A DNA stretch of 64,000 nt, from IMG/VR virus record IMGVR_UViG_3300030390_001877, positions 32,001 through 96,000 of that record; one strand, written 5' to 3'. The notes beneath the pieces were generated by a model. That model made no database searches. It saw only the letters and a list, made by a program, of their open reading frames with translations, and was not told the DNA's origin. The stretch is from a virus. Within the stretch, counting starts at the first letter, position 1, and every line of letters begins with the position of its first letter. The position numbers and the translations under genes were made by a program. Shown here one piece after another: positions 10,325 to 48,729 of the stretch.

Positions 10325-12655
10325 ATGCAAGCAGAGTTTTTAAAAGATAAGAGTAAATTTACAAATAGGTTGCTGCATAGTGACGTGGAAGCTAGAGGCT
10401 TTATAGATATAGTTAATAAACCTGAAGATGTGTGGTGTTTGGTTTCAAGAGATGATGAAACTGATGAGGTATTTATATTCCACGACTACCCTGAGTACGA
10501 TAACGCAGAAGTATTCGACCAAGGAGAGAAACATATTATTCCTCCTAGAACAGGAACTCTCTTAGACGGAGTTAGGTTTTGGTATCTAGCAGGTAAGAAT
10601 GGTAGTAAGCTATCTGTGCATAACTGCTTCACCTATGATAAACCTTTAATAGAAAAGATCTGGCCTAAGTGTATTATTGATGATGATGTTTGGGTAGATA
10701 CTTTTATACAAAGTAAGATTCAATATTTTGACAGACCACAACGGAAAGGAGCTAAATCTCCTCACGGTTTGTTGAATTACTCTTTGATGGAAGGTAATAA
10801 GAAACCTGAAGTAGAAGACTTTAGTATTATGAATGCTTTTATGCTACATCGTTGTATAGTAGATACTAAGACTCAGAAGTTTGCACATAACTATCTTAAA
10901 AAAGAAAGAGATATGCTTTTGAGTAAGCTTGGTATTGACATGCAAGATGCTTATAAGATGGAGGTAGAGTATACAAAAACATGTTACGAGCAAGAACAGT
11001 ACGGAGCTAAGGTAGATGTACCACATATTAAAAAATGTATTGAATATCTTGATAAAACTACCGCAGATCTAGCAAAAGATATAACACCTAAACTCCCTCC
11101 TACTATTAAGGTAAGTGGTGGCAAAGTATCTCGTGTTGAGATGGCAGGTTTGTTTGGTTATGATACATCTGGTATGAAAGATGAGATGGAAATGGTTAAG
11201 AAAGATGGTGAAATGGTTTCCCAACCAGTTAAACCTTATTATAAACCTACCACTAATTTCCATACTATTAAAAAAGTTAATCAATATTCAGGTTTTAATA
11301 TTTCCTACGGGTACAGCCCTAAGTTTACTAAAAAGAATGACCTGACTAAATGGATTAAATCTCAACACCCCAAAGGTGACACTGCAAAAGTAAAAGAGTT
11401 ATCAGACTTCGTAAAAGAATGGGAGATTGATAAAAACATTGAAGAAACTAAACTTTTAAATAAAAACACTTGTGATTATTTTGAAGTAGAACCAGAAGAT
11501 ATAGATGTTATTGCTGGTGCTCACACTAAAATTAAGTTTGTTGAAAGCTCTTTGACCCAACATGAAGTGGTAAAAGGTTATCTGATAAAAGAAGGTATAA
11601 AATTCGCAGAAGAATGGAATCTTAAGAAGGATGGTGAAGGTCAGATCATAAAAGCTGAATTTGATACTGAAGTTAGGTATCCACCTAAAGCCAGAAGAGA
11701 TCAACAAATGGTGTTGAAGATTAAAAAGGGTGATGCATTAGTAACTTCCCCTAAGTTCGGGGAAAAAGAATATGCTCAATTAGAATCAGAAGATGGTAAG
11801 AATGTAGGTATGTACAACACTTTGGTACACCGTAGGCGTTACCTTGAGAACTACAAAGACCCAGAAAATAAAGGCTTACTTTCTTACGTAAGAGAAGATG
11901 GTAGGGTTGGTGCTGGTGTTAATAACTTCAACACTGCAACTGGGCGCGCATCACACAGAAAAATTGTAAATTTGCCTGCTGATGGTGCTGTATTTGGTAA
12001 AGAAATGCGACAATGTATTGTTGCTGATGAAGGAAAAGAGTTAGTCGGTATTGACCAAAAATCTAGCCAACTTTCTATATGCGCTTTTGTAACTAACAAT
12101 ACAGATTATTATGAGGCGGTTGCGACAGGGGTAGAATTCGAAAATGATGAAAATGGAAATCCTATTTTCCATGGTTCTAGTGCTCATTGTGTGAATTCAA
12201 GATATTTTAATTTGGTAACCAAAGAAGAATGGGCAGATGCAGTAAGAACACAAAACCCAGATTTGATACATGATATTGTACTCAGACGTAAAAAATCCAA
12301 AGGATTAAGTTTCGCTTCGTTATTTGGTTGTGGTCCTGCTAAGTTAGCTTTAATGGGTGGTTTTGAAGTATCAGAAGCTAAAACAAAACTGCAAGCCTTC
12401 TTAGATAATATGGGTTTATCTGAGGTAATAAAATTTCTAGAAGTATGTAGGGAGAAATACAAAAGAGGTAAAGGTTTTTATATACCAACAGGGTTTGGGT
12501 ATTGGGTTTATTGCGGAGGTGTACATAAATCAACCAACTACCTGATCCAGTCGCTAGAAGGAGTGGTGCAAAAGAAAGCAGTTGAAATAATGAAACAGAG
12601 GTTTATAGAAAAAGGTTATTGGGGAAAAAGCGTTAATAAAATACTTGATATGCAT
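10325..12655 (+). CDS. family A DNA polymerase, exon 1 (spliced product 844 aa)
   Basis: Exo I SDVE, Exo II HN..YD, Exo III HRC.VD; motif A IDQKSSQL; motif B RKKSKGLSFASLFG; ends at the H of motif C. Confidence 0.93.
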
Positions 12656-12961
12656 AAATATTGTGCCTTCTAACCGTGAGGTTAGTCGAATAACTCCGTT
12701 AATTACTGGAAACCTTAACTAGATTTGTTAATATTATCGTGAGATAAATTTAACATGTTTGTAGAAGGTGATCAGAAGCCACACTGTTCTTACAGTAGGT
12801 TCAGAGACTATCGAAAGCGTATGTATCAATGGAAGATACTATATACAGCAAGTAGAGTAGGGTTCAAGCGAATTCGAAAATGGAGCATCTTAGTTAAGAT
12901 GATTATATAGTCCGACTCTGTTAGAAATAACAGGAGATTTAGCGAGTCTCATAAGTAGGTG
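12656..12961 (+). mobile_element. group I intron, ORF-less (306 nt), in DNA polymerase motif C
   Basis: P1 GCAU/GUGC with U.G at the 5' splice site; P7 GAGACUA/UAGUCC; terminal G at 12961; splicing restores MH|DEVLL. Confidence 0.92.
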
Positions 12962-13165
12962 GATGAAGTATTATTAGAAGTAGATAAAGGTATGGGTGTT
13001 GAGGTAGGCAAAATCGCTTGTGAAGCTTACACTCAAGCTGGAGTGGAATTAAATAAATGGTATAAAGAAAATTTACATTTATATCCTGCAGGCGGTACAC
13101 CTAAGATTACCTGTGATTTTGCAGGAGGTTATGCTGTTGGGGTAGACTACGCAAGTTGCCATTGA
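12962..13165 (+). CDS. family A DNA polymerase, exon 2
   Basis: DEVLLEV...GVDYASCH, the typical PolA C-terminus. Confidence 0.92.
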   Translation, partial: DEVLLEVDKGMGVEVGKIACEAYTQAGVELNKWYKENLHLYPAGGTPKITCDFAGGYAVGVDYASCH

Positions 13166-13185
13166 TTTTTAATAAGGAGTATACT

Positions 13186-13992
13186 ATGAGAAAAAGAAAG
13201 TACGGAGAAGGTTACACAGCAATAGGTAATTATGGAGAATTTACAGTAATATCTTATTTGAATAAAAATGAAGTATTGATACGTTTCAATGAAACGGGTT
13301 ATGAAGTTTGGTGTGCATCTAATAATGTAGCTAAAGGTACAGTAAGAGATCCTTACTTTAAGTCTGTCTATGGGGTAGGTTATATAGGAGACACTGCAAC
13401 ATCTAATAGGGTAGGGGATAAAAATATACTTAAAACTTCTTACAATACTTGGCACGATATGCTAAGACGTTGTTACGCAAACAACGAAGGTAAAATGAAA
13501 ACATATGAGAATTGTGATGTGTGTGACGATTGGTTGTGTTATGCTACATATGAAAGGTGGTTTGATGATAACTATATTGAAGGTTTTCAGGTAGATAAAG
13601 ATTTCTTAAAATTAGGTAACAGAACATATTCTCCTGAAAATTGTGTTTTTCTTCCTAGAGAGATAAATGCTACTATAGGCTTTAAGACTAATAATACCAC
13701 CCGACAAGAGGATTACAAGGACTTACCAGTTGGAGTATCTTTTCATAAAAGAGATGAAGTATATACCGCTAGATGTTGGTGCGATGGAAAACTAAAATCT
13801 TTAGGTTACCACAAAACACCTGATTTAGCTTTTAGCTCTTATAAAAAATTCAAAGAAGATAAATTGAAAAGCTTAGCTGAGTTTTACTTTTCTGAAGGTA
13901 AGATTTGTCAAGAAGTTTACAATAATTTAAAAAATTATGTTGTATATCCAGAAGGTCATGCTTATTACCTGAAAAACTACAACATACAATAA
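13186..13992 (+). CDS. free-standing HNH (beta-beta-alpha-Me) homing endonuclease with AP2-like C-terminal domain
   Basis: W..MLRRCY; VDKD...N.TYSPENCVFLP.EIN; C-terminal GVSFHK...Y.AR...LGY; AAGGAG SD before ATG 13186. Confidence 0.85.
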   Translation: MRKRKYGEGYTAIGNYGEFTVISYLNKNEVLIRFNETGYEVWCASNNVAKGTVRDPYFKSVYGVGYIGDTATSNRVGDKNILKTSYNTWHDMLRRCYANNEGKMKTYENCDVCDDWLCYATYERWFDDNYIEGFQVDKDFLKLGNRTYSPENCVFLPREINATIGFKTNNTTRQEDYKDLPVGVSFHKRDEVYTARCWCDGKLKSLGYHKTPDLAFSSYKKFKEDKLKSLAEFYFSEGKICQEVYNNLKNYVVYPEGHAYYLKNYNIQ

Positions 13993-27923: not shown

Positions 27924-28889
27924 TTATTTAGTTGTGGATAATCCAGAGGTAGCCCCTACATATCCTATCAGTTGTTTCATCTCGTCTGCGGAAGAGTTGT
28001 TGAAAATATAGGTGTTTCCCCCTTGTTGTTGATTACTTGTAGAAGGATTACCATCAGAGAACATATAGTTATAAGCTCCTTTCAGAGTAGGATATGCTGT
28101 CAAGTTTAATAATGAAGCTGAGTCTCTTTGTGATGAGAGGATATTCCCTAAGAAAGAGTTTTCATCTAAACCAAATAATTGACTTGTTTTACCTGCTCTA
28201 AGCTTTCCTTCTTTATCCTGAGTAAACCCTGATGTGGTCATTTCCCTGAGGTTAACCTGCATACCTGCACTTTCTTCTATATTACCCACAATCTTATCCG
28301 AGAAAAGAGATACTAATTCTTCTGCTGCTGCTAAGGCTAGTGTGATTGGAAGGAATGCTTTTGCTAAAGCTGCGTTAGTGGATAAAGCTACTATACCCAT
28401 AGTCTTACCAAAGGCTAGAAGTTTACTTATCGCTAAAGCTCCGAACAATAGTTCAAAGTTATCAATAGCAACTTTAATCACAGGTTCTATAAGCTTTAAA
28501 GAATAAGCAATCCCATTAAATACTGCTCCGAATATTTTACCCATCTTCTCAAGTTGTGGTCCTGAGGTTTTGAGTATTTGTGAAATTGTTTTGTAAAGAT
28601 TAGATAATCCTTCTGAGAAACCTGATTTGAAGATAGTATCTCCTGCACGCTGGGTTTCTGTGATCATCTGACCTTCTGTAACACGTAATCCTTGAAGAGC
28701 CTTATCGAAAGCGCCACCTTCTAGAGCTGCCTTTTTTAGTTCGGCGGCTACTTTAGGTAATACTTCTGAGGAAACAAGTTGACCCTGCTCCATCATCTTG
28801 AATAATTCTGCTTCTGAGACGTTTAGTGCTCTGCTGAACACCTGAACTGCACCTGGAAGGCTATCACCTAGCTGATTTTTGAGTTCCTC
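27924..28889 (-). CDS. tape measure protein, exon 3
   Basis: Begins EELKNQLGDSLPGA (tape measure domain motif). Confidence 0.92.
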   Translation of the reverse strand, partial: EELKNQLGDSLPGAVQVFSRALNVSEAELFKMMEQGQLVSSEVLPKVAAELKKAALEGGAFDKALQGLRVTEGQMITETQRAGDTIFKSGFSEGLSNLYKTISQILKTSGPQLEKMGKIFGAVFNGIAYSLKLIEPVIKVAIDNFELLFGALAISKLLAFGKTMGIVALSTNAALAKAFLPITLALAAAEELVSLFSDKIVGNIEESAGMQVNLREMTTSGFTQDKEGKLRAGKTSQLFGLDENSFLGNILSSQRDSASLLNLTAYPTLKGAYNYMFSDGNPSTSNQQQGGNTYIFNNSSADEMKQLIGYVGATSGLSTTK

Positions 28890-29828
28890 CAGTAAAGCTA
28901 ATAAAATCAATAACTTAGCTAAACACCTACACCTTCTCAGGGTAGCCTGATCATATCATAACCCTCGCCATTCTACGTTAGGGTTCCTGCCTTTTCTTCC
29001 TCTAAGAGGTTCTACTCTACTAACTTACCAAAGGTAGTCTACGCTACCTTATCCGCTTTCGATGATCGATGATCGTGAATCTACTTCTTACGTTTATTTA
29101 CTGTTATACTATATTGTTCCCATATGTGTTTCCAAGCATGTCCTGCACGTATCTTAGTGGCTTGCTGTCTACTGATTTCGTACTTTTCAACAGCTTCTTT
29201 AGGCATCATACCTTTCTCAAAATCTTTACAAACTTTGTGTACTAAATCTTCTGTTAAAACACTTCTACCATTCAAAGTACCTTTTAGTGCTGGTGTATTA
29301 CCGACTCTCCAAGACTCTTTAGTGTTGTGTTCGTGCGTACACCATTCCAGATTAGAGTAGTGGTTATTAGTCTTATCATGGTCAATATGATTAACACAAA
29401 CAACATAAGGGTAGTTTTCTGAACATAACTTTTTCAATTCTTCCGAAGGCTCTTCTAAAAAATACATTGCTACTAATCTGTGGACTTTTCTAGCAAATGT
29501 CTTACCATCTTTCTTAAATTGTACTTGGTAGTAACCCTGTTTATTTACAGGTACGTATTTCTTAGTTTTGGTTTTAATGTTCCTTATTAAACCTTCACAG
29601 TTTATTTCATACTTAGGAAATTCTTCTATAACTTTAAACATAAATATAACCCTTATTCTATTAAAAGGTTATTGTAGATCATTCGAGGCTGATTGTCAAT
29701 ATTTTCAGAATTTTTAGGGTTCGCTACTATGTCACCATGTAGTATCCTATCTGAAATCTAACTTGAGTTCCCAGCAGTTAAACAGGTTATTCGATAACAG
29801 TTTCCTGTTAAAGGGCCAAAGAACTTTT
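28890..29828 (-). mobile_element. group I intron (939 nt) encoding an HNH endonuclease
   Basis: P1 GGCU/GGCC; P10 GAGGAACU/AGUUCUUU; P7 variant GAUCA/UGAUC; terminal G at 28890; restores KVMA|EEL. Confidence 0.9.
29081..29641 (-). CDS. intron-encoded HNH homing endonuclease (I-HmuI-like)
   Basis: NUMOD4-like N-terminus; VHRLVA; VNHIDHDKTNNHYSNLEW. Confidence 0.9.
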   Translation of the reverse strand: MFKVIEEFPKYEINCEGLIRNIKTKTKKYVPVNKQGYYQVQFKKDGKTFARKVHRLVAMYFLEEPSEELKKLCSENYPYVVCVNHIDHDKTNNHYSNLEWCTHEHNTKESWRVGNTPALKGTLNGRSVLTEDLVHKVCKDFEKGMMPKEAVEKYEISRQQATKIRAGHAWKHIWEQYSITVNKRKK

Positions 29829-29853
29829 AGCCATTACCTTCCCTTTTGACATC
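29829..29853 (-). CDS. tape measure protein, exon 2 (25-nt micro-exon)
   Basis: G ATG TCA AAA GGG AAG GTA ATG GCT completes ALIQM-MSKGKVMA-EEL. Confidence 0.9.
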
Positions 29854-30148
29854 CAATCTCTTCGAGTAAGTACGTTAACCCTTACTCCGCAAGTTCCTTA
29901 TTGCAGCTCTATATCACTATAGAAGTTGAGACTATATCTTCACCCTTACCGTTACGTATTAGGGGTTGTGCGCTTCCACTCACTTGAGTGTACAGGTTTC
30001 ATAATCCCAGAAGGATCGTTTACCTTAGTCGTTACACCTTGATAAGAATTACTTCCTACCCTTGGCTCGGTATTGTCTACTTGAGAGTTCCACCGAATTC
30101 ACACAATTTGTTCATGCTTATTACTAAGCAGCCAGACAATAATCGTCT
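29854..30148 (-). mobile_element. group I intron, ORF-less (295 nt)
   Basis: P1 CCAGAU/GUCUGG; P7 ACGACUA/UAGUCU; terminal G at 29854. Confidence 0.92.
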
Positions 30149-31317
30149 ATCTGGATCAAAGCTTTCTGACTTCGCTTCATGCTTTCGTCATCTACTTTCA
30201 ATGATGTACCAAACATACTCAATCCTGTGAATATATCTTCTTGCTGATCTTGAGAAATCTTACCTTTTGCAGCAAATTTGAACTTTACCCAAGCATCAGT
30301 TGTATCTTTTAAACTAAGTCCCATCTTATCAACAATACTATTGATAAAAAGCATATCTGTTGCTGCGGCATCAGCACTACCAGCAGCAGCTAGCATAGAT
30401 GCATCGATCCCTTGAAATGTCTGCCCAACACGTTTAATAGCAACAGTCCCTTCAAACAAAGCAAACAAACTTGCATAAGAACGGATCATATTACGAGTAG
30501 AGTCATTTAATCCTCCCTGAACAACATTCAATCCCATCATATTACGTTTTAAAGATTTAGTCTCTCTGTTAACAGATCTCATCTCAGAAGCTAGACGAGT
30601 CATTGCAGCAGTGTCACCTACTCTAACAGCATCTCCAAATCTTTTATCATAAGAAGACATATCCTTTCCAGAAGATTTCATGTTCTGATAATAAGCTGTA
30701 CTTTGGAAACGTGCTATCTTGTTTGCAAAAGCTTGTTGACGTTTAGTAGCAGCCTTGGCAAGCTTATCCTGCTGTGCGTAGAAGTCTTTCATCTTCTTGA
30801 GTTCTTCATCTTGGGCAGTCATCTTCTTGACGTGTTGCTTCATGAAAGCATTATTAACTTCTTCACTAGAAGATTTTATTTTAGCATTATTCCTAAGTTT
30901 TATTTTAAGAAGATCTTGCTCTCGTTTGTTTTCCTTTTTAAAACGTTCTTCTACATTAGCTTTTAAAGCAGCTTCCACCCTATTAAAGTCCGATACCTTA
31001 GCAGAAGCTACATCCCTCCCAGCTTGCTTACTTTGCTTGTAAACTTTTAACCTTTCTTGTAAAGATTTCCTGCCGTTAGAAATTTCCTTATCTCTCGCAG
31101 CTTTGTCTTCTTTAATACGTTTGTTGATGATGTACTTTTGGTAATTAGCCGTCCCTTTAAGATCTTTCCTTTTAGACCTCTCAATCTTACCAGACCTTTT
31201 TACAGCCCTCATCCCCATGGAATCCAGCATCTTATCGATTTCTTTAGCTTGTTTACCAACTCCTTTAGTATTCAAGTCTATATCAATAAAAAACTGTTCA
31301 ATCATATTATCTGCCAT
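30149..31317 (-). CDS. tape measure protein, exon 1 (spliced product 719 aa)
   Basis: Helical, Lys/Ala-rich; ends inside the tape measure domain (RSQKALIQ). Confidence 0.92.
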
Positions 31318-43728: not shown

Positions 43729-44871
43729 TTAAAACAAACGTTTTGAAGATTGTTTGCCCATAGAGGATTTCATCTTAGAGTATTGTGTGTTGCCCGAGGA
43801 TAATTGTGGGATGGCTACTGCTTTGTGGATTTTGGAAGCGCTGAGGTAATTAAAAGCTGAAGCTACTGTATCTCCGAAATCATCCTTTTTAGTTGTAGTG
43901 GATCTTTCTCCATCAAAACCTTCAAGTTGTTTCATTATGTAATTATAAGTTTTCTCTGAGAAAGTATTCTTAGCTATTTTAATAAGTCCATTCTCTGCTG
44001 CTGTTGCGAAGGGGAGAAATTTAGTTAGCTTATTTTTATTGATAGGGCAAGGGTCTTTCTTGAAAATAAAACCGTGTTCATTGAAGAATTTAGCTTGTTG
44101 ATTCCAAAGAGATTTTCCTGCGGCAGCAGGGTCCTGAGGCGCTACGATGTAAACTTCATCACCGTCATACTCTGCCTGTTTAATCATTGTATTATCCCTA
44201 TCACCAGACCTCTTATATATCGCCCCTTGTATATCATCTACTTCATCGTAAAAATCTTCATGATATTCACCTGCTAAAACATAATAACCGTCATGAGTCT
44301 TATACATCTTGATACAAGTTGTTGGATCAGGGTTTTTCTGCGAAGTTGTCCTTTCGGAAGCCCCGAAATCGTAAGCCCTAACAGCAAAAGCTTTAGAAGG
44401 TATCTTATCTATTTCCTGTAACCACTCCCTCTTAAAATACTTAGTCCCGAAAGCCATTTCAGCCCAACAACCGTGTAGTAGTTGTGCCCTGTCAATATCA
44501 TTAAGACCTTCTAAGAATGCGAGGTAGGATGGATTAATTTCCATCATGATCGGATTGTCGTATATAGTACCACTAACAAAAGAAAAGGATAGTATCTTAC
44601 CTTCCCATCTTTCCTTAGGAATTTCCAATCTAGTACCTAACTCTTCTCGTGAATTACCCCATATATACTCACCTGCTTCTTGTACAAAGTATCTGACTAC
44701 TCCATCTTTTTCTGGGTCAGGAAAACCTTCATCATCTAAGTACCATGAGATCATATCCTTTATCTCGTGCGAAGGAGAAGGGTTACAACTTATTACCATT
44801 CTTGAGAAGTGTTTAGAAGGGGATCTTAGTCGGGACATGAAGTACTCTATCTGTTCCCATTCGAATTGTGT
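43729..44871 (-). CDS. terL: terminase large subunit, exon 3
   Basis: Begins TQFEWEQIEY; coupling motif SCNP; nuclease motifs RAYDFG and KDDFGD. Confidence 0.92.
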   Translation of the reverse strand, partial: TQFEWEQIEYFMSRLRSPSKHFSRMVISCNPSPSHEIKDMISWYLDDEGFPDPEKDGVVRYFVQEAGEYIWGNSREELGTRLEIPKERWEGKILSFSFVSGTIYDNPIMMEINPSYLAFLEGLNDIDRAQLLHGCWAEMAFGTKYFKREWLQEIDKIPSKAFAVRAYDFGASERTTSQKNPDPTTCIKMYKTHDGYYVLAGEYHEDFYDEVDDIQGAIYKRSGDRDNTMIKQAEYDGDEVYIVAPQDPAAAGKSLWNQQAKFFNEHGFIFKKDPCPINKNKLTKFLPFATAAENGLIKIAKNTFSEKTYNYIMKQLEGFDGERSTTTKKDDFGDTVASAFNYLSASKIHKAVAIPQLSSGNTQYSKMKSSMGKQSSKRLF

Positions 44872-45156
44872 CTATTGTTGTTCAAAGAAGTTCGTTACTC
44901 TTCTTCCGTCTATAAAGACTGCCTTATATCACTATAAGAGTTCAGACTATATCATCATCTACGTGAGATGCTGTGCGCTTCCACCCACTTAGGTGTACAG
45001 GTTTCATAATCCTTTCTAAAGGATCGTTTACCTTAGTCGTTGCACCTTCAAACTGATTACTCAGTAAGCTTGGCTCAGAATTGTCTTTCGTAAAAGAGTT
45101 TCTCTGAATTCACACAGTTATCGATATGTATCGCTACATAAAGGGGCACACTGTTT
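44872..45156 (-). mobile_element. group I intron, ORF-less (285 nt), after terL Walker B
   Basis: P1 GGGU/GCCC; P10 ACAC/GUGU; P7 ACGACUA/UAGUCU; terminal G at 44872; restores IDEG|TQF. Confidence 0.92.
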
Positions 45157-45459
45157 ACCCTCATCTATACCAACAAATGTAAACTCTTGTCCCTGAGCAT
45201 CCATCTTTGACCTAGCTACGTTCTCTGCTTGCTGGTATTTTATTTTAGCACCATTAGGAAATACTACTTCCATCTTATGATCTCTTATTGCCTTAGGTTC
45301 AGAACCTTTAGGCATCTGTTCGTAAATTGCTCTGGCGTTAGGCCAAAGTCCCCCTAATAACTGCGGGTTTGTTCTACGGTACATGATGCAGTTTGTCTTA
45401 CCGTCATCTAAAAGCATTAGAGGGAGGTGATTTAGTATGGTACTTTTCCCAGATCCTGC
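45157..45459 (-). CDS. terL: terminase large subunit, exon 2
   Basis: AGSGKS ... FVGIDEG (Walker A 3' half to Walker B), 101 codons. Confidence 0.92.
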
Positions 45460-45708
45460 CAATAAATCTCTCTGGGACAGTTTCGAGTTCGTTACACTCT
45501 TCCACAGTTTCCTGTGTTGTCGGATCATATCTTCTACTTATAAAAGTAGCCCTACGTTTCGAATTCACTTGAATCCTACTCTCAAAATGAGATGACCTCT
45601 ACACCCATGAATTTAATCATTCGGCTCGGTATTGGCATATGATATAACATATCACTTAGCTTCCACCGAATTAGCAGGGGAGTTTATGGTGTGACCACAG
45701 GAATTTTA
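45460..45708 (-). mobile_element. group I intron, ORF-less (249 nt), in terL Walker A
   Basis: P1 GGCU/GGUC; P10 GCAGGA/UCCUGU; P7 variant GAGGUCA/UGAUCC; terminal G at 45460; restores IGGA|AGSGKS. Confidence 0.9.
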
Positions 45709-45816
45709 AGCCCCACCTATTACTAGTATTTGAGTATCAGAAGCTCTTTTCAACATAAGAGCTTGCTTCTTACTTGCAGGAGAGAAAAAGGGTTTCTTTC
45801 CTTTCTGTTTTGTCAT
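45709..45816 (-). CDS. terL: terminase large subunit, exon 1 (spliced product 517 aa)
   Basis: MTKQKGKKPFFSPASKKQ...ILVIGGA, 36 codons; ATG overlaps the HNH stop; missed by the ORF track. Confidence 0.9.
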
Positions 45817-46622
45817 TTTATAAAATCCTCGTGTTTTTCTTTAAATATTTTCAATGCTTCAGGTTGTCTACTGCCTTTGCAAAATCTGCTTATCATAGAT
45901 TCTGCTATACCTCGTTCAGATGAAATAAATTTCAAAGATTTTTTGTTTATTAATCTATCTTCTATAATATCAACAACATCATGTAGACCTAGTTTAGTTG
46001 TAGGATGTTTTCTTTTTATGAAATCTCCTTTCTTGAAACCTGTTATACTAGATAACCTTCTACCTGACAACCCATCCCATAGTGTATCTGGACTGGATAC
46101 AGTTAAGCCTAGATTTTCACATATACATTTATACTCTAATCCTGCATTAAAAAGAAATCCTACATATTTCCATTCATACTTGGTAAGGGAACTCAAGGTC
46201 TTCTCTTTTCCATAACTTTCTGCATAATATTTTATAGTATTAAACTCTGAGGTAACCCACTGTAAATTGTACCACATATTATTATCTTTTGTATTATCTA
46301 TATGGTCTATTACTAAACAAGAATTTTCATCAGGAGTGTCCACTAAAAAATGTAAAGCTACTAACCTGTGTACCCTCCTGTGTTTGTATTCCCTATTGCC
46401 ATGGGACATAGCTACCTCTTTATAACCATCCTTATCTGTTTTAGGTTTAAGTATACGTTCTCTTACTTTCTTAACACCTTCTATTCTATGGCGATTAACC
46501 CAAGGAGTCTCTCTTTTCAAACTCTTAACTCTTCCATAATTACTTATCTGATATTTACCTTCAAAGTCTTGGATATCTTTCCATTCTTCCTTAACAGGGA
46601 ATGCTATGTTATTCCAAATCAT
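45813..46622 (-). CDS. free-standing NUMOD4-HNH homing endonuclease
   Basis: EEWKDI..FEGKYQISNYGRVKS; VHRLVA; IDHIDN...NN...NLQW. Confidence 0.9.
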   Translation of the reverse strand: MIWNNIAFPVKEEWKDIQDFEGKYQISNYGRVKSLKRETPWVNRHRIEGVKKVRERILKPKTDKDGYKEVAMSHGNREYKHRRVHRLVALHFLVDTPDENSCLVIDHIDNTKDNNMWYNLQWVTSEFNTIKYYAESYGKEKTLSSLTKYEWKYVGFLFNAGLEYKCICENLGLTVSSPDTLWDGLSGRRLSSITGFKKGDFIKRKHPTTKLGLHDVVDIIEDRLINKKSLKFISSERGIAESMISRFCKGSRQPEALKIFKEKHEDFIK

Positions 46623-46788
46623 ATTATAAATTCCTCACATTATAATCTCCTTCCTCAAATTAATAAAAAGGAAAAGAACCTATCTGAGGAATACTATAGA
46701 TTCTCTTTTTCCACTCTCAGAAACCCTGTGATCAGCAGATGTCTCTCTTAGAAAGCGTCCTTCTCGAATTATCACTAATTCATCACAT

Positions 46789-46817
46789 ATCTTACCACAA
46801 AGAACACCCTCTGTCAA
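46789..46817 (-). promoter_or_regulatory. sigma70-like promoter upstream of HNH-terL
   Basis: TTGACA-N17-TAAGAT with TGn. Confidence 0.75.
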
Positions 46818-47026
46818 GAATAGACTTCCTCATCAGAATGCTTCTCATAAAGAACACCAAGATCTTCCAGAAGTTCTTTCTCTAAAGGAGACATATAGTC
46901 ATCTCCAACACTGCCTCTCACTACCTCAAGACTCTCTATAAAACGTTCAACCTCCTTCCAAGTAGCCCTCTTCCCAACAGCACTATCTTCATAACGACAT
47001 TTGTTTCTCTTAAAAATTTTATTCAC
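46814..47026 (-). CDS. hypothetical protein
   Basis: 70 aa, GTG start with SD. Confidence 0.55.
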   Translation of the reverse strand: MNKIFKRNKCRYEDSAVGKRATWKEVERFIESLEVVRGSVGDDYMSPLEKELLEDLGVLYEKHSDEEVYS

Positions 47027-47051
47027 AGCACACTCTCCTCTCTAAAACTCT

Positions 47052-47426
47052 TCAACTCTTCAACTTTCTACGAACATTCTTCTCAGCAGTACTACTCTTT
47101 GTATGGAAATTCTTTGTAGAAAGTTCTATATCTCTAGGGACATACACCCCTTCTACCATGATCATTTTTGGAAGTGTGTTTTCGTAATGATCCTTGTAAT
47201 CTCGGAATCCTTTACCATACTCACTTTCTTGCCCAAGACCATTTACCAGAATAATGAAATCTTTATAACCGTAATCTTTTAAATAAGATTCTGCTTCCAT
47301 AAAACCTTCATACCAAGAATCCCTCATCTCCCAAATTTTAACTCTAATAAAATCTATAACCACTATTATAAGGGAAATACTCGACACAATAACAATCACA
47401 CATACTAAGATTTGCATACCTAACAT
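47052..47426 (-). CDS. membrane-anchored hypothetical protein
   Basis: N-terminal TM helix. Confidence 0.65.
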   Translation of the reverse strand: MLGMQILVCVIVIVSSISLIIVVIDFIRVKIWEMRDSWYEGFMEAESYLKDYGYKDFIILVNGLGQESEYGKGFRDYKDHYENTLPKMIMVEGVYVPRDIELSTKNFHTKSSTAEKNVRRKLKS

Positions 47427-47453
47427 ATCACTCTCCTCAAATAAAACACTAAA

Positions 47454-47888
47454 TCAAACTCTCCACTTATAAAAGCAACCCTTCCATAAGCATCGCATCT
47501 TTACCCAAGAATAATACACACACTTTTTCCAGAAGTCAACCTTTGAATCAGATAATATTTTCCAATAGATTCTATGTATAGAAGGTTTATCGTATGCAAA
47601 GATTGTATGGTTCAAACGATACATCTGCCTGAGAACGTCTAACACTAACGAAGCAAGATATGTTTCGCTGTCACCAGCAGGAGTTACATTACTGCATAAA
47701 GTAAGTCCCTTATTCCAACAATACCCTTTAGAAACATATAAACTTCCATCAGGAGATAACCTTGCTAGGATCATTCTTCTTCCTTTACAGGATAAGGTAT
47801 ACTCTTTTCCAGAATACTCTGGAAGATGAAAGAACATTTCTTCTGAGGTGGTACTGTCATACTTCATAAGAGCGCTATCATATTTCAT
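47454..47888 (-). CDS. DUF1353-like protein (degenerate)
   Basis: VSKGYCW...TP...ASLVLD.LRQM resembles the GY.WDG...ASLVHD.LYQ pattern. Confidence 0.5.
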   Translation of the reverse strand: MKYDSALMKYDSTTSEEMFFHLPEYSGKEYTLSCKGRRMILARLSPDGSLYVSKGYCWNKGLTLCSNVTPAGDSETYLASLVLDVLRQMYRLNHTIFAYDKPSIHRIYWKILSDSKVDFWKKCVYYSWVKMRCLWKGCFYKWRV

Positions 47889-47925
47889 AAGAAGGTTTTC
47901 CTTTGTATCGGATTATTTATAAACT

Positions 47926-47953
47926 ATTATAAACTTGTTTAAGGGGTTGTCAA
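47926..47953 (-). promoter_or_regulatory. sigma70-like promoter
   Basis: TTGACA-N16-TATAAT. Confidence 0.75.
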
Positions 47954-47965
47954 ATTTCAGGCAAG

Positions 47966-48003
47966 AAAAAAGCCCTACGGCTACAATGAGCTTTCGGGCT
48001 TTG
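47966..48003 (-). terminator. intrinsic terminator
   Basis: AAAGCCC...GGGCTTTTTT. Confidence 0.65.
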
Positions 48004-48180
48004 AGGAGAGAGGAATGTTCACAAGGAGGGAGAGTGTGTGAGAAAGGTATTCCTCTTATGAGAGTTGTAATTTAATAATTACTATTGTTATGAAATGTGT
48101 GTTTATTTACAAACAGTAACTAGAAATGGTTACTTTTGGGAATGTAACTCTTATTGGTTACATAAATTCTTATGTAAAAC

Positions 48181-48729
48181 TTAGTTTAATTGAGACGGAT
48201 CTTCTTCCCAATCTGTATCTATAAGGTCTGCTGTTGAAAAAGCTTCTTCTTCCTCAGCACCACCTCCACCTTCTGCAAGAGCTTTCTTTGCTTCACGAGC
48301 TTCTTTCTTGAGGTATTTCTCGTACTCTGCAAGTTCTCGGATACGTTGCTCATTATTTTTTAGTACAGATTGAGATACACTGATTATTGTGTTTTCTTTA
48401 TACTTGTCAGGTTGATAAGCGTGTTCATATTGTTCAATCAAGAAAGGATTGTCTTTCCCCTCTGGTTGACTGAAATCAAACTTAGGATTCTCAACCCAAA
48501 CCTTTTCAGCTTTACCTTTATTCTTAGGGTTCATAACTTTATGACAATCATGCAACAACCATTTAAGTAAGTCAACAGCCTTATCAACATCCTTAGCCAT
48601 ATTCTTCTGGCTCTTATTCCATGCATTGATATGGTTGTTTGTCGCCTCTGTTGCGGTGCTGGGACGGCCATTCTCTATAGGAATAGGATCTGGAGCTAAT
48701 TTAATCTGAGGTTTATTGCCTTGTGCCAT
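48181..48729 (-). CDS. candidate terminase small subunit
   Basis: 182 aa, N-terminal GRP, helical core, acidic tail; ~2.4 kb upstream of terL. Weak positional call. Confidence 0.35.
   Translation of the reverse strand: MAQGNKPQIKLAPDPIPIENGRPSTATEATNNHINAWNKSQKNMAKDVDKAVDLLKWLLHDCHKVMNPKNKGKAEKVWVENPKFDFSQPEGKDNPFLIEQYEHAYQPDKYKENTIISVSQSVLKNNEQRIRELAEYEKYLKKEAREAKKALAEGGGGAEEEEAFSTADLIDTDWEEDPSQLN

Follow-up and report, generated by a model that had tools for sequence, protein, structure and literature searches.

Two group I introns and a free-standing HNH endonuclease gene at the large terminase gene of a marine phage, a candidate case of collaborative homing

In the Vibrio cholerae phage ICP1, splicing of the transcript of the large terminase gene (terL) has been confirmed by RNA sequencing (RNA-seq) and reverse transcription-PCR (RT-PCR) (Barth, Dunham and Seed 2023, PMC10448857). 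The same authors noted an adjacent free-standing nuclease and discussed collaborative homing, with nuclease turnover as the alternative (PMC10448857). In the collaborative-homing systems described earlier, as PMC10448857 and PMC3984707 present them, the proposed logic is that the enzyme targets the insertion site of the intron, and the cleavage site was mapped experimentally. Group I introns in terL are also known from Pectobacterium phage CB7 (Certrevirus), in which splicing was shown by RT-PCR and the HNH gene lies inside the intron (PMC7344957), and from the Bastillevirinae, with up to three per gene (PMC11878797); an intron that lacks an open reading frame (ORF) and is paired with an upstream free-standing nuclease is described in neither of these two papers. 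Here we describe a terL gene that is split by two ORF-less group I introns and that is preceded directly by a free-standing HNH endonuclease gene. The locus lies in a stretch of 64,000 nucleotides (nt) of viral DNA from marine metagenomes, bases 32001-96000 of the 132,129-bp IMG/VR record IMGVR_UViG_3300030390_001877, which we call the window. On balance, we favor an account in which the HNH gene and intron 1 are partners in collaborative homing and intron 2 is an independent passenger. The locus shares the logic proposed for the earlier systems; it differs from them in host gene, in nuclease family and in having two introns, and the target of its nuclease is predicted from sequence.

How closely does this locus resemble that of ICP1? 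When phage records were searched by megablast with the complete locus, only short intron pieces were returned; blastn and protein searches were more sensitive. With intron 1 as the query, blastn matched 221 phage records, including all ICP1 genomes at 75% nucleotide identity; the ICP1 match begins right after the 102-nt ORF gp130 and ends before the gp129 terminase. Both loci therefore have a homologous intron at the identical site (GGA/AGGGKS in ICP1; here and below a slash in a peptide or codon motif marks the insertion point), a short exon 1 (102 nt in ICP1) and a nuclease gene whose stop codon overlaps the terL start codon, in ICP1 by 4 nt between gp131 and gp130. The nucleases themselves are different, a T5orf172/CapR protein (gp131) in ICP1 and an I-HmuI-like HNH protein in the window. 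Unlike ICP1, the window phage has a second intron at Walker B, and its TerL is only ~30% identical to that of ICP1. The layout has already been published for ICP1, where splicing was shown; the window locus is a further example of it and holds no new mechanism.

The features of the locus are collected in Table 1. The sequence-only reading of this DNA had assembled a TerL of 517 amino acids from exons of 108, 303 and 1143 nt with both ATPase motifs restored, and this assembly was borne out. The joined exons contain zero internal stops, and their product aligned without gaps and colinearly over both junctions with the uninterrupted TerL proteins of Vibrio phages RYC and eugene and of Cronobacter phage PBES02. 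The restored junctions read ...ILVIGGA/AGSGKS... and ...FVGIDEG/TQFEWEQ..., and after joining, one polypeptide carries the Walker A motif (GAAGSGKS), the Walker B motif (FVGIDEG) and the RNaseH-like Terminase_6C domain that together identify a large terminase. In Pfam searches, exons 2 and 3 covered consecutive parts of Terminase_6N, followed by Terminase_6C. Exon 3 found tblastn matches in 1311 phage records, and the protein is 50-60% identical to the TerL proteins of Vibrio phage qdvp001, Shewanella phage 1/4, Pseudoalteromonas phage PH357 and Certrevirus phages. An in-frame ATG at position 45528 adds only a spurious extension of 23 amino acids to exon 2. TerL is obtainable only from spliced mRNA.

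Table 1. Features of the terL locus in the window (coordinates are window positions)
Feature	Coordinates	Strand	Description
NUMOD4-HNH ORF, free-standing, I-HmuI-like	46622..45813	minus	269 amino acids; Pfam NUMOD4 (2.1e-17) and HNH_3 (3.2e-6)
terL exon 1	45816..45709	minus	108 nt, 36 amino acids, ending ...ILVIGGA; homologous to uninterrupted TerL N-termini
Intron 1, group I, ORF-less	45708..45460	minus	249 nt; inside the Walker A (P-loop) codons, GGA/AGSGKS
terL exon 2	45459..45157	minus	303 nt, 101 amino acids, AGSGKS...FVGIDEG; Pfam Terminase_6N positions 7-104
Intron 2, group I, ORF-less	45156..44872	minus	285 nt; just past the Walker B Asp-Glu, IDEG/TQ
terL exon 3	44871..43729	minus	1143 nt, 380 amino acids; rest of the ATPase and RNaseH-like nuclease domain; Terminase_6N positions 111-214, Terminase_6C
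GAGGA Shine-Dalgarno sequence of terL	45826..45830	minus	inside the HNH ORF at its 3' end; 9 nt upstream of the terL ATG; read from the sequence
Sigma-70-like promoter match, TTGACA-17-TAAGAT with TG	46789..46817	minus	consensus scan, weak; within the 191-nt gap that precedes the HNH gene

In this phage an essential packaging motor depends on two ribozymes, and gene callers misread the locus as an orphan ORF of 36 amino acids and a TerL with a false N-terminus. The same misreading is found in public records. Many deposited Vibrio phage genomes, for example, OZ195714 (F100), OZ196312 (K470) and MG592529 (1.161.O), start at a "terL" ATG inside the intron. TerL then has a false N-terminus, and the opposite end of the record carries exon 1 together with the nuclease gene; the equivalent of this start in the window is the ATG at 45528.

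In both introns the P1 helix has a U.G pair at the 5' splice site, the last nucleotide is G, and a P10 helix forms with the 3' exon; the exon before each of them ends in U. In intron 1, P1 is formed by GGUGGGGCU with GGUCACACC (8 of 9 positions paired, U.G at the splice site), and P10, UCCUGU with GCAGGA, follows directly after P1. In intron 2, P1 (GGGU with GCCC) and P10 (GUGU with ACAC) were read from the sequence. Intron 2 matched the full length of the Rfam model RF00028 at 90.5 bits (E 7.2e-22; cut-off 50), and intron 1 scored 40.1 bits against the same model, below the 50-bit gathering threshold (E 1.9e-8 in a local search). To examine intron 1 by covariation, we aligned 11 homologues together with 12-nt exon flanks and applied a hand-drawn structure comprising P1, P10 and P3-P9. 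In this alignment 94.1% of cells were paired, compared to ~37% when the partners were slid by one to three columns. Both sides had changed in 23 of the 53 pairs, including pairs in P1, P10 and the P7 pseudoknot, and none of 500 shuffles matched the observed pairing or covariation score. Covariation also reached into the exons. One pair between exon and guide in P1 is G-C in 6 sequences, A-U in 4 and U-A in 1, the exon base being the wobble position of the second glycine codon, and one P10 pair is A-U in 9 sequences and U-A in 2, its exon partner being the third base of the first codon of exon 2. Taken together, these counts show intron 1 to be a genuine group I ribozyme that recognizes these exons. 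The P3-P9 core with its P3/P7 pseudoknot is supported by covariation in intron 1 and by the full-length model match in intron 2. Rfam's own alignment of intron 1, which placed P1 inside exon 1, was rejected in favor of the P1 and P10 supported by covariation.

These data bear on whether the intervening sequences could remain unspliced, with terL a pseudogene or a gene expressed in pieces. Such a reading would fit the score of intron 1 under the Rfam cut-off, but it has to contend with a full ribozyme fold whose exon pairing is backed by covariation, with exon reading frames that are intact, with the splicing of the homologous ICP1 intron (PMC10448857), and with a first exon of 36 amino acids that ends in the P-loop and would hardly function alone. 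We regard its probability as vanishingly small, and it is almost certain that both introns are real and splice. The earlier description of the two introns, each with P1 and P10 and each without an ORF, also agrees with our data: covariation backs the pairings of intron 1, and the ORF list contains no endonuclease-like ORF inside intron 1 or intron 2.

We then considered the HNH gene. Its product is homologous to I-HmuI (PDB 1u3e), an intron-encoded HNH nickase of Bacillus phage SPO1, with an E value of 1.3e-18 over residues 13-189, and it also matches PHROG HNH families. The two proteins have in common a NUMOD4-like N-terminus, the catalytic D-H...N...N motif of HNH enzymes and a DNA-binding tail of helices. 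The I-HmuI gene lies within an intron of a DNA polymerase gene, whereas the window HNH is free-standing, ~95 amino acids longer and located beside terL. In an alignment of 16 members of its clade, residues H107, N119 and N128 were invariant, D106 was conserved in at least 90%, and much of the C-terminal DNA-binding half was invariant. The protein has the NUMOD4 and HNH_3 domains and the intact catalytic residues of an I-HmuI-type enzyme.

Approximately 30 database proteins are 46-66% identical to the HNH protein over 78-99% of its length, mostly over >90%. We inspected the genomic context of 11 further members which, with the window, make 12 contexts (comparison loci are given below by their L numbers). 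The HNH gene lies directly 5' of terL in all 12, next to TerL proteins that range from 29% to ~72% identity to the TerL of the window. Identity to the window ranged over 48-65% for the HNH proteins and over 29-72% for the TerLs, and the two were not correlated (Spearman rho -0.18 for n=11). The best HNH match (L023; 65% of amino acids) is encoded next to a TerL of the ICP1-like kind with just 30% identity to that of the window. The absence of correlation indicates that the gene has moved horizontally to one conserved locus, and in relatives the same slot is taken by other nucleases. A sporadic distribution at a fixed site, as found here, is the signature of a mobile gene that has repeatedly landed at one locus, not that of a vertically inherited packaging factor.

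A position directly upstream of terL would also suit a cofactor of the terminase in packaging, like HK97 gp74, a precedent discussed by Barth et al. (PMC10448857). Proteins of the gp74 type are small HNH proteins co-conserved with the terminase of cos phages, and this is not what we found. At 269 amino acids, with NUMOD4, HNH_3 and a long DNA-binding tail, the architecture is that of I-HmuI; close relatives have other nuclease families or nothing in the slot; HNH similarity does not follow TerL similarity; and the termini of the record are direct terminal repeats, not cos ends. A packaging cofactor that is not a mobile element is therefore very improbable, and we hold with considerable confidence that the HNH protein is a mobile homing endonuclease directed at terL.

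Upstream of the HNH gene, the interval 46623-48180 (minus strand) contains three small ORFs (144, 124 and 70 amino acids) that have no family match and that lie between the HNH gene and a conserved gene for a protein of 182 amino acids (48729..48181), which is homologous to genes in L009 and L010. In relatives, the equivalent interval carries a gene of the T5orf172 family. We also considered whether the ~400-amino-acid proteins encoded upstream of terL in relatives might be a conserved small terminase; this was rejected, as these proteins have T5orf172/MUG113, CapR and zinc-finger domains and are absent from the window phage. Sigma-70-like promoter matches in the region, among them the one in Table 1, were no more numerous than in shuffled sequence.

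Is the HNH gene linked to intron 1? The free-standing endonuclease gene ends 108 nt upstream of the ORF-less intron, and the coordinates confirm the sequence-only reading both on this distance and on the overlap of the HNH stop codon with the terL ATG. Of the 12 HNH-bearing loci, 10 have an interruption in the codons of the P-loop. The interruption is an intron at GGA/A in five loci (the window, L020, L023, L028 and L036), an intron at GGAA/G in two (L026 and L038) and an intron at G....G/KS, with a 5-bp P10 of CUUUU with AAAAG, in two (L022 and L025). In the remaining locus (L035) it is probably a mini-intein of 146 amino acids that runs from Cys to Asn and is followed by Ser. The two loci with no P-loop interruption, in Vibrio phage 184E37.1 and in L037, represent one lineage (TerLs 86% identical). 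In loci that were retrieved by TerL alone, an upstream nuclease and a P-loop intron occurred together in 7, the nuclease alone in 2, the intron alone in 0 and neither in 3, an association with a one-sided Fisher p of 0.045 that ignores phylogeny. This pattern favors P-loop DNA as the putative target of the nuclease, with the insertion protecting it, and it is not proof. Both the constant position 5' of terL and the frequent P-loop interruption are as expected if the HNH gene and intron 1 home collaboratively. That the HNH target overlaps the insertion site of intron 1 is, in our estimate, an even bet.

The L035 insertion (L035:4294-4830, JAANSU013408470.1) lies in frame in the P-loop of a terL gene downstream of an HNH homologue and reads GGSAG/C...TGN/SGKS; its end residues are those of a mini-intein, although Pfam gave no intein hit. 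In the Barba phages and in L011, the P-loop intron is at a fourth position, GG/A.

Several observations weigh against a fixed partnership of the HNH gene and intron 1. HNH-bearing phages 184E37.1 and L037 keep an uninterrupted P-loop. Relatives of intron 1 adjoin genes of the T5orf172 family in ICP1, qdvp001, L009, L010 and PH357, and in the Barba phages they adjoin no recognizable nuclease. The introns of the window and L023 are 96.5% identical over 231 nt, compared to 72% for the HNH genes (DNA) and 30% for the TerLs. Much of the sample came from searches by HNH or intron homology, and its members are not phylogenetically independent. Finally, enzymes of the I-HmuI family are nickases able to cut intron-containing alleles too, so that an intron would not necessarily make its carrier immune. 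The sequence-only reading implied that intron 1 and the HNH gene are strictly co-inherited; this is not supported, given the same intron beside T5orf172 genes or no nuclease and the discordance of 96.5% versus 72%.

The comparison with L023 suggests how the intron may have traveled. When L023:1502-1740 is aligned with window positions 45708-45460, the match starts precisely at the 5' splice site and weakens over the final ~18 nt; in the flanking exons, the two phages have in common only the 9-12 nt before the intron and the 5 nt after it. The discordant divergence of intron and HNH gene implies that intron 1 moved later than, and apart from, the HNH gene, with very short flanking homology. The P-loop intron of qdvp001 (L005:2640-2897), with a junction that preserves the frame, would end in A, not in the usual G, which may reflect a shifted junction or a sequencing error.

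One reading of these data is that the elements have come together independently. Selfish elements would then simply collect at the 5' end of terL. The HNH gene would home to the intergenic or start-codon position through a cut elsewhere than at the intron 1 site, and the introns would be unrelated parasites of conserved ATPase motifs that may have lost their ORFs through nuclease turnover, the alternative stated by Barth et al. (PMC10448857). It agrees with the presence of three unrelated nuclease types in one slot (HNH, T5orf172/CapR and GIY-YIG), with two non-HNH nucleases that precede an uninterrupted terL (RYC and eugene), with HNH-bearing loci that lack a P-loop insertion, with the discordant divergence of intron and HNH gene, and with introns at many other terL positions that have no adjacent nuclease. 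What it does not readily explain is that 10 of the 12 HNH-bearing loci are interrupted within the same stretch of at most 27 nt by different introns or an intein, which would be surprising if P-loop DNA were irrelevant to the HNH enzyme. Moreover, the DNA-binding half of the enzyme is conserved across phages in which the only strongly conserved DNA nearby is the P-loop. For these reasons we consider independent co-localization rather unlikely.

We propose instead that the HNH enzyme belongs to a clade specialized on the 5' end of terL. During co-infection with a phage whose P-loop codons are uninterrupted, it would nick or cut the terL of that phage at or close to these codons. Repair from the donor genome would then copy the HNH gene and usually also the adjacent intron 1, and the donor would be protected by its own intron 1, which splits the target. 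Intron 2 would be a separate passenger, from a related intron family and not tied to the HNH gene. The overlap of stop and start codons would reflect a tight packing that is conserved among the nuclease genes next to terL and that permits co-transcription and possibly coupled translation. Of the collaborative homing unit originally proposed for this DNA, the link between the HNH gene and intron 1 is retained, with the HNH gene at terL in every context and the P-loop interrupted in most; strict co-inheritance and the inclusion of both introns are not.

The proposal that the HNH gene drags both ribozymes along conflicts with the distribution of intron 2. Several HNH-bearing relatives lack the Walker B intron, among them L020, L022, L023, L025 and L036, and it is present in the HNH-less qdvp001 and L010. 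In relatives its position is D/E, 6 nt upstream of the EG/T site of the window. Cores related to that of intron 2 were found at another terL site in Vibrio phages VnaP and R16F and in the tape-measure gene of the window phage itself. Judged by these distributions, intron 2 is inherited independently of the HNH gene.

The companion claim, that translation of the HNH gene gates terminase expression, rested on the ATGA shared by the HNH TGA (45815-45813) and the terL ATG (45816-45814). A nuclease stop that overlaps the terL start, or a spacing of ≤9 nt, was present in 17 of the 17 loci that we checked, whatever the nuclease family. Because this arrangement is general across nuclease families and terL has its own GAGGA Shine-Dalgarno sequence, we find gating unsupported. 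One might still argue for a single unit in which one HNH enzyme mobilizes both introns and HNH translation gates TerL synthesis. The shared ATGA and its counterparts in all 17 loci would agree with this, and intron 2 lies ~550 nt downstream of the intron 1 insertion site, a distance within the co-conversion tract lengths reported for T4 homing. Against it stand the occurrence of the HNH gene without the Walker B intron in several relatives and of that intron without the HNH gene in others, the D/E rather than EG/T position of the relatives of intron 2, and the Shine-Dalgarno sequence of terL; in addition, a motor protein needed in quantity would be unlikely to depend on the translation of a selfish nuclease. 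We therefore give the single-unit explanation little credence.

A broader possibility, which we raise only tentatively, is that the TerL P-loop is a shared battleground. Unrelated nucleases would dock at the start of terL, interchangeable insertions would serve as immunity devices, and introns would move between TerLs only 30% identical by little more than a match to P1 and P10. At least five insertions fall in the same stretch of ≤27 nt, namely introns at GG/A, GGA/A, GGAA/G and G....G/KS and the probable mini-intein at GGSAG/S. If the idea is right, the natural variants (nuclease with intron, nuclease alone, intron alone, intein) would allow the origin of the nuclease-intron pairing to be tested directly. 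With this locus, the small number of candidate collaborative-homing systems gains an HNH-type member, and a set of variants comes with it: a nuclease clade with three intron positions, an intein or nothing; an intron with other nucleases; and a near-identical intron in a distant phage. This set could be used to test both the protection that introns give against neighboring nucleases and the origin of composite mobile introns. The P-loop as a hot spot for multiple elements is the part worth following.

More generally, terL is a hot spot for introns in this phage group. The gene is in five pieces in Vibrio phage R16F (L007) and in four in VnaP (L008), and L013, L026 and L028 are further cases. 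Insertion sites include at least five P-loop positions, three around Walker B, and others near residues 160, 242, 270 and 386 of the window TerL. A look-up of sequencing runs that contain the stretch listed no RNA run. Metagenome reads from four DNA runs gave weak joints, with one contig that skips 45454-45715 and has a 30-nt side of 88% likeness and two contigs that could not be interpreted; we set these reads aside as unusable for intron-less or HNH-less alleles.

Two further genes in the window contain group I introns. The tape-measure gene is split within 27924-31317 (minus strand) into TMP_3 halves at 30124..31317 and 27924..28910. A 70-bit match to RF00028 places its group I intron at 30158..29907, and between the halves is an HNH_3 ORF (29641..29081), in parallel with the tape-measure introns of ICP1. 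A fourth group I intron (window ~12646-12934, plus strand; 44646-44934 of the record) matched RF00028 at 53.7 bits where a family-A DNA polymerase ORF (10325..12673) ends, and the polymerase gene probably continues in 13156..13992.

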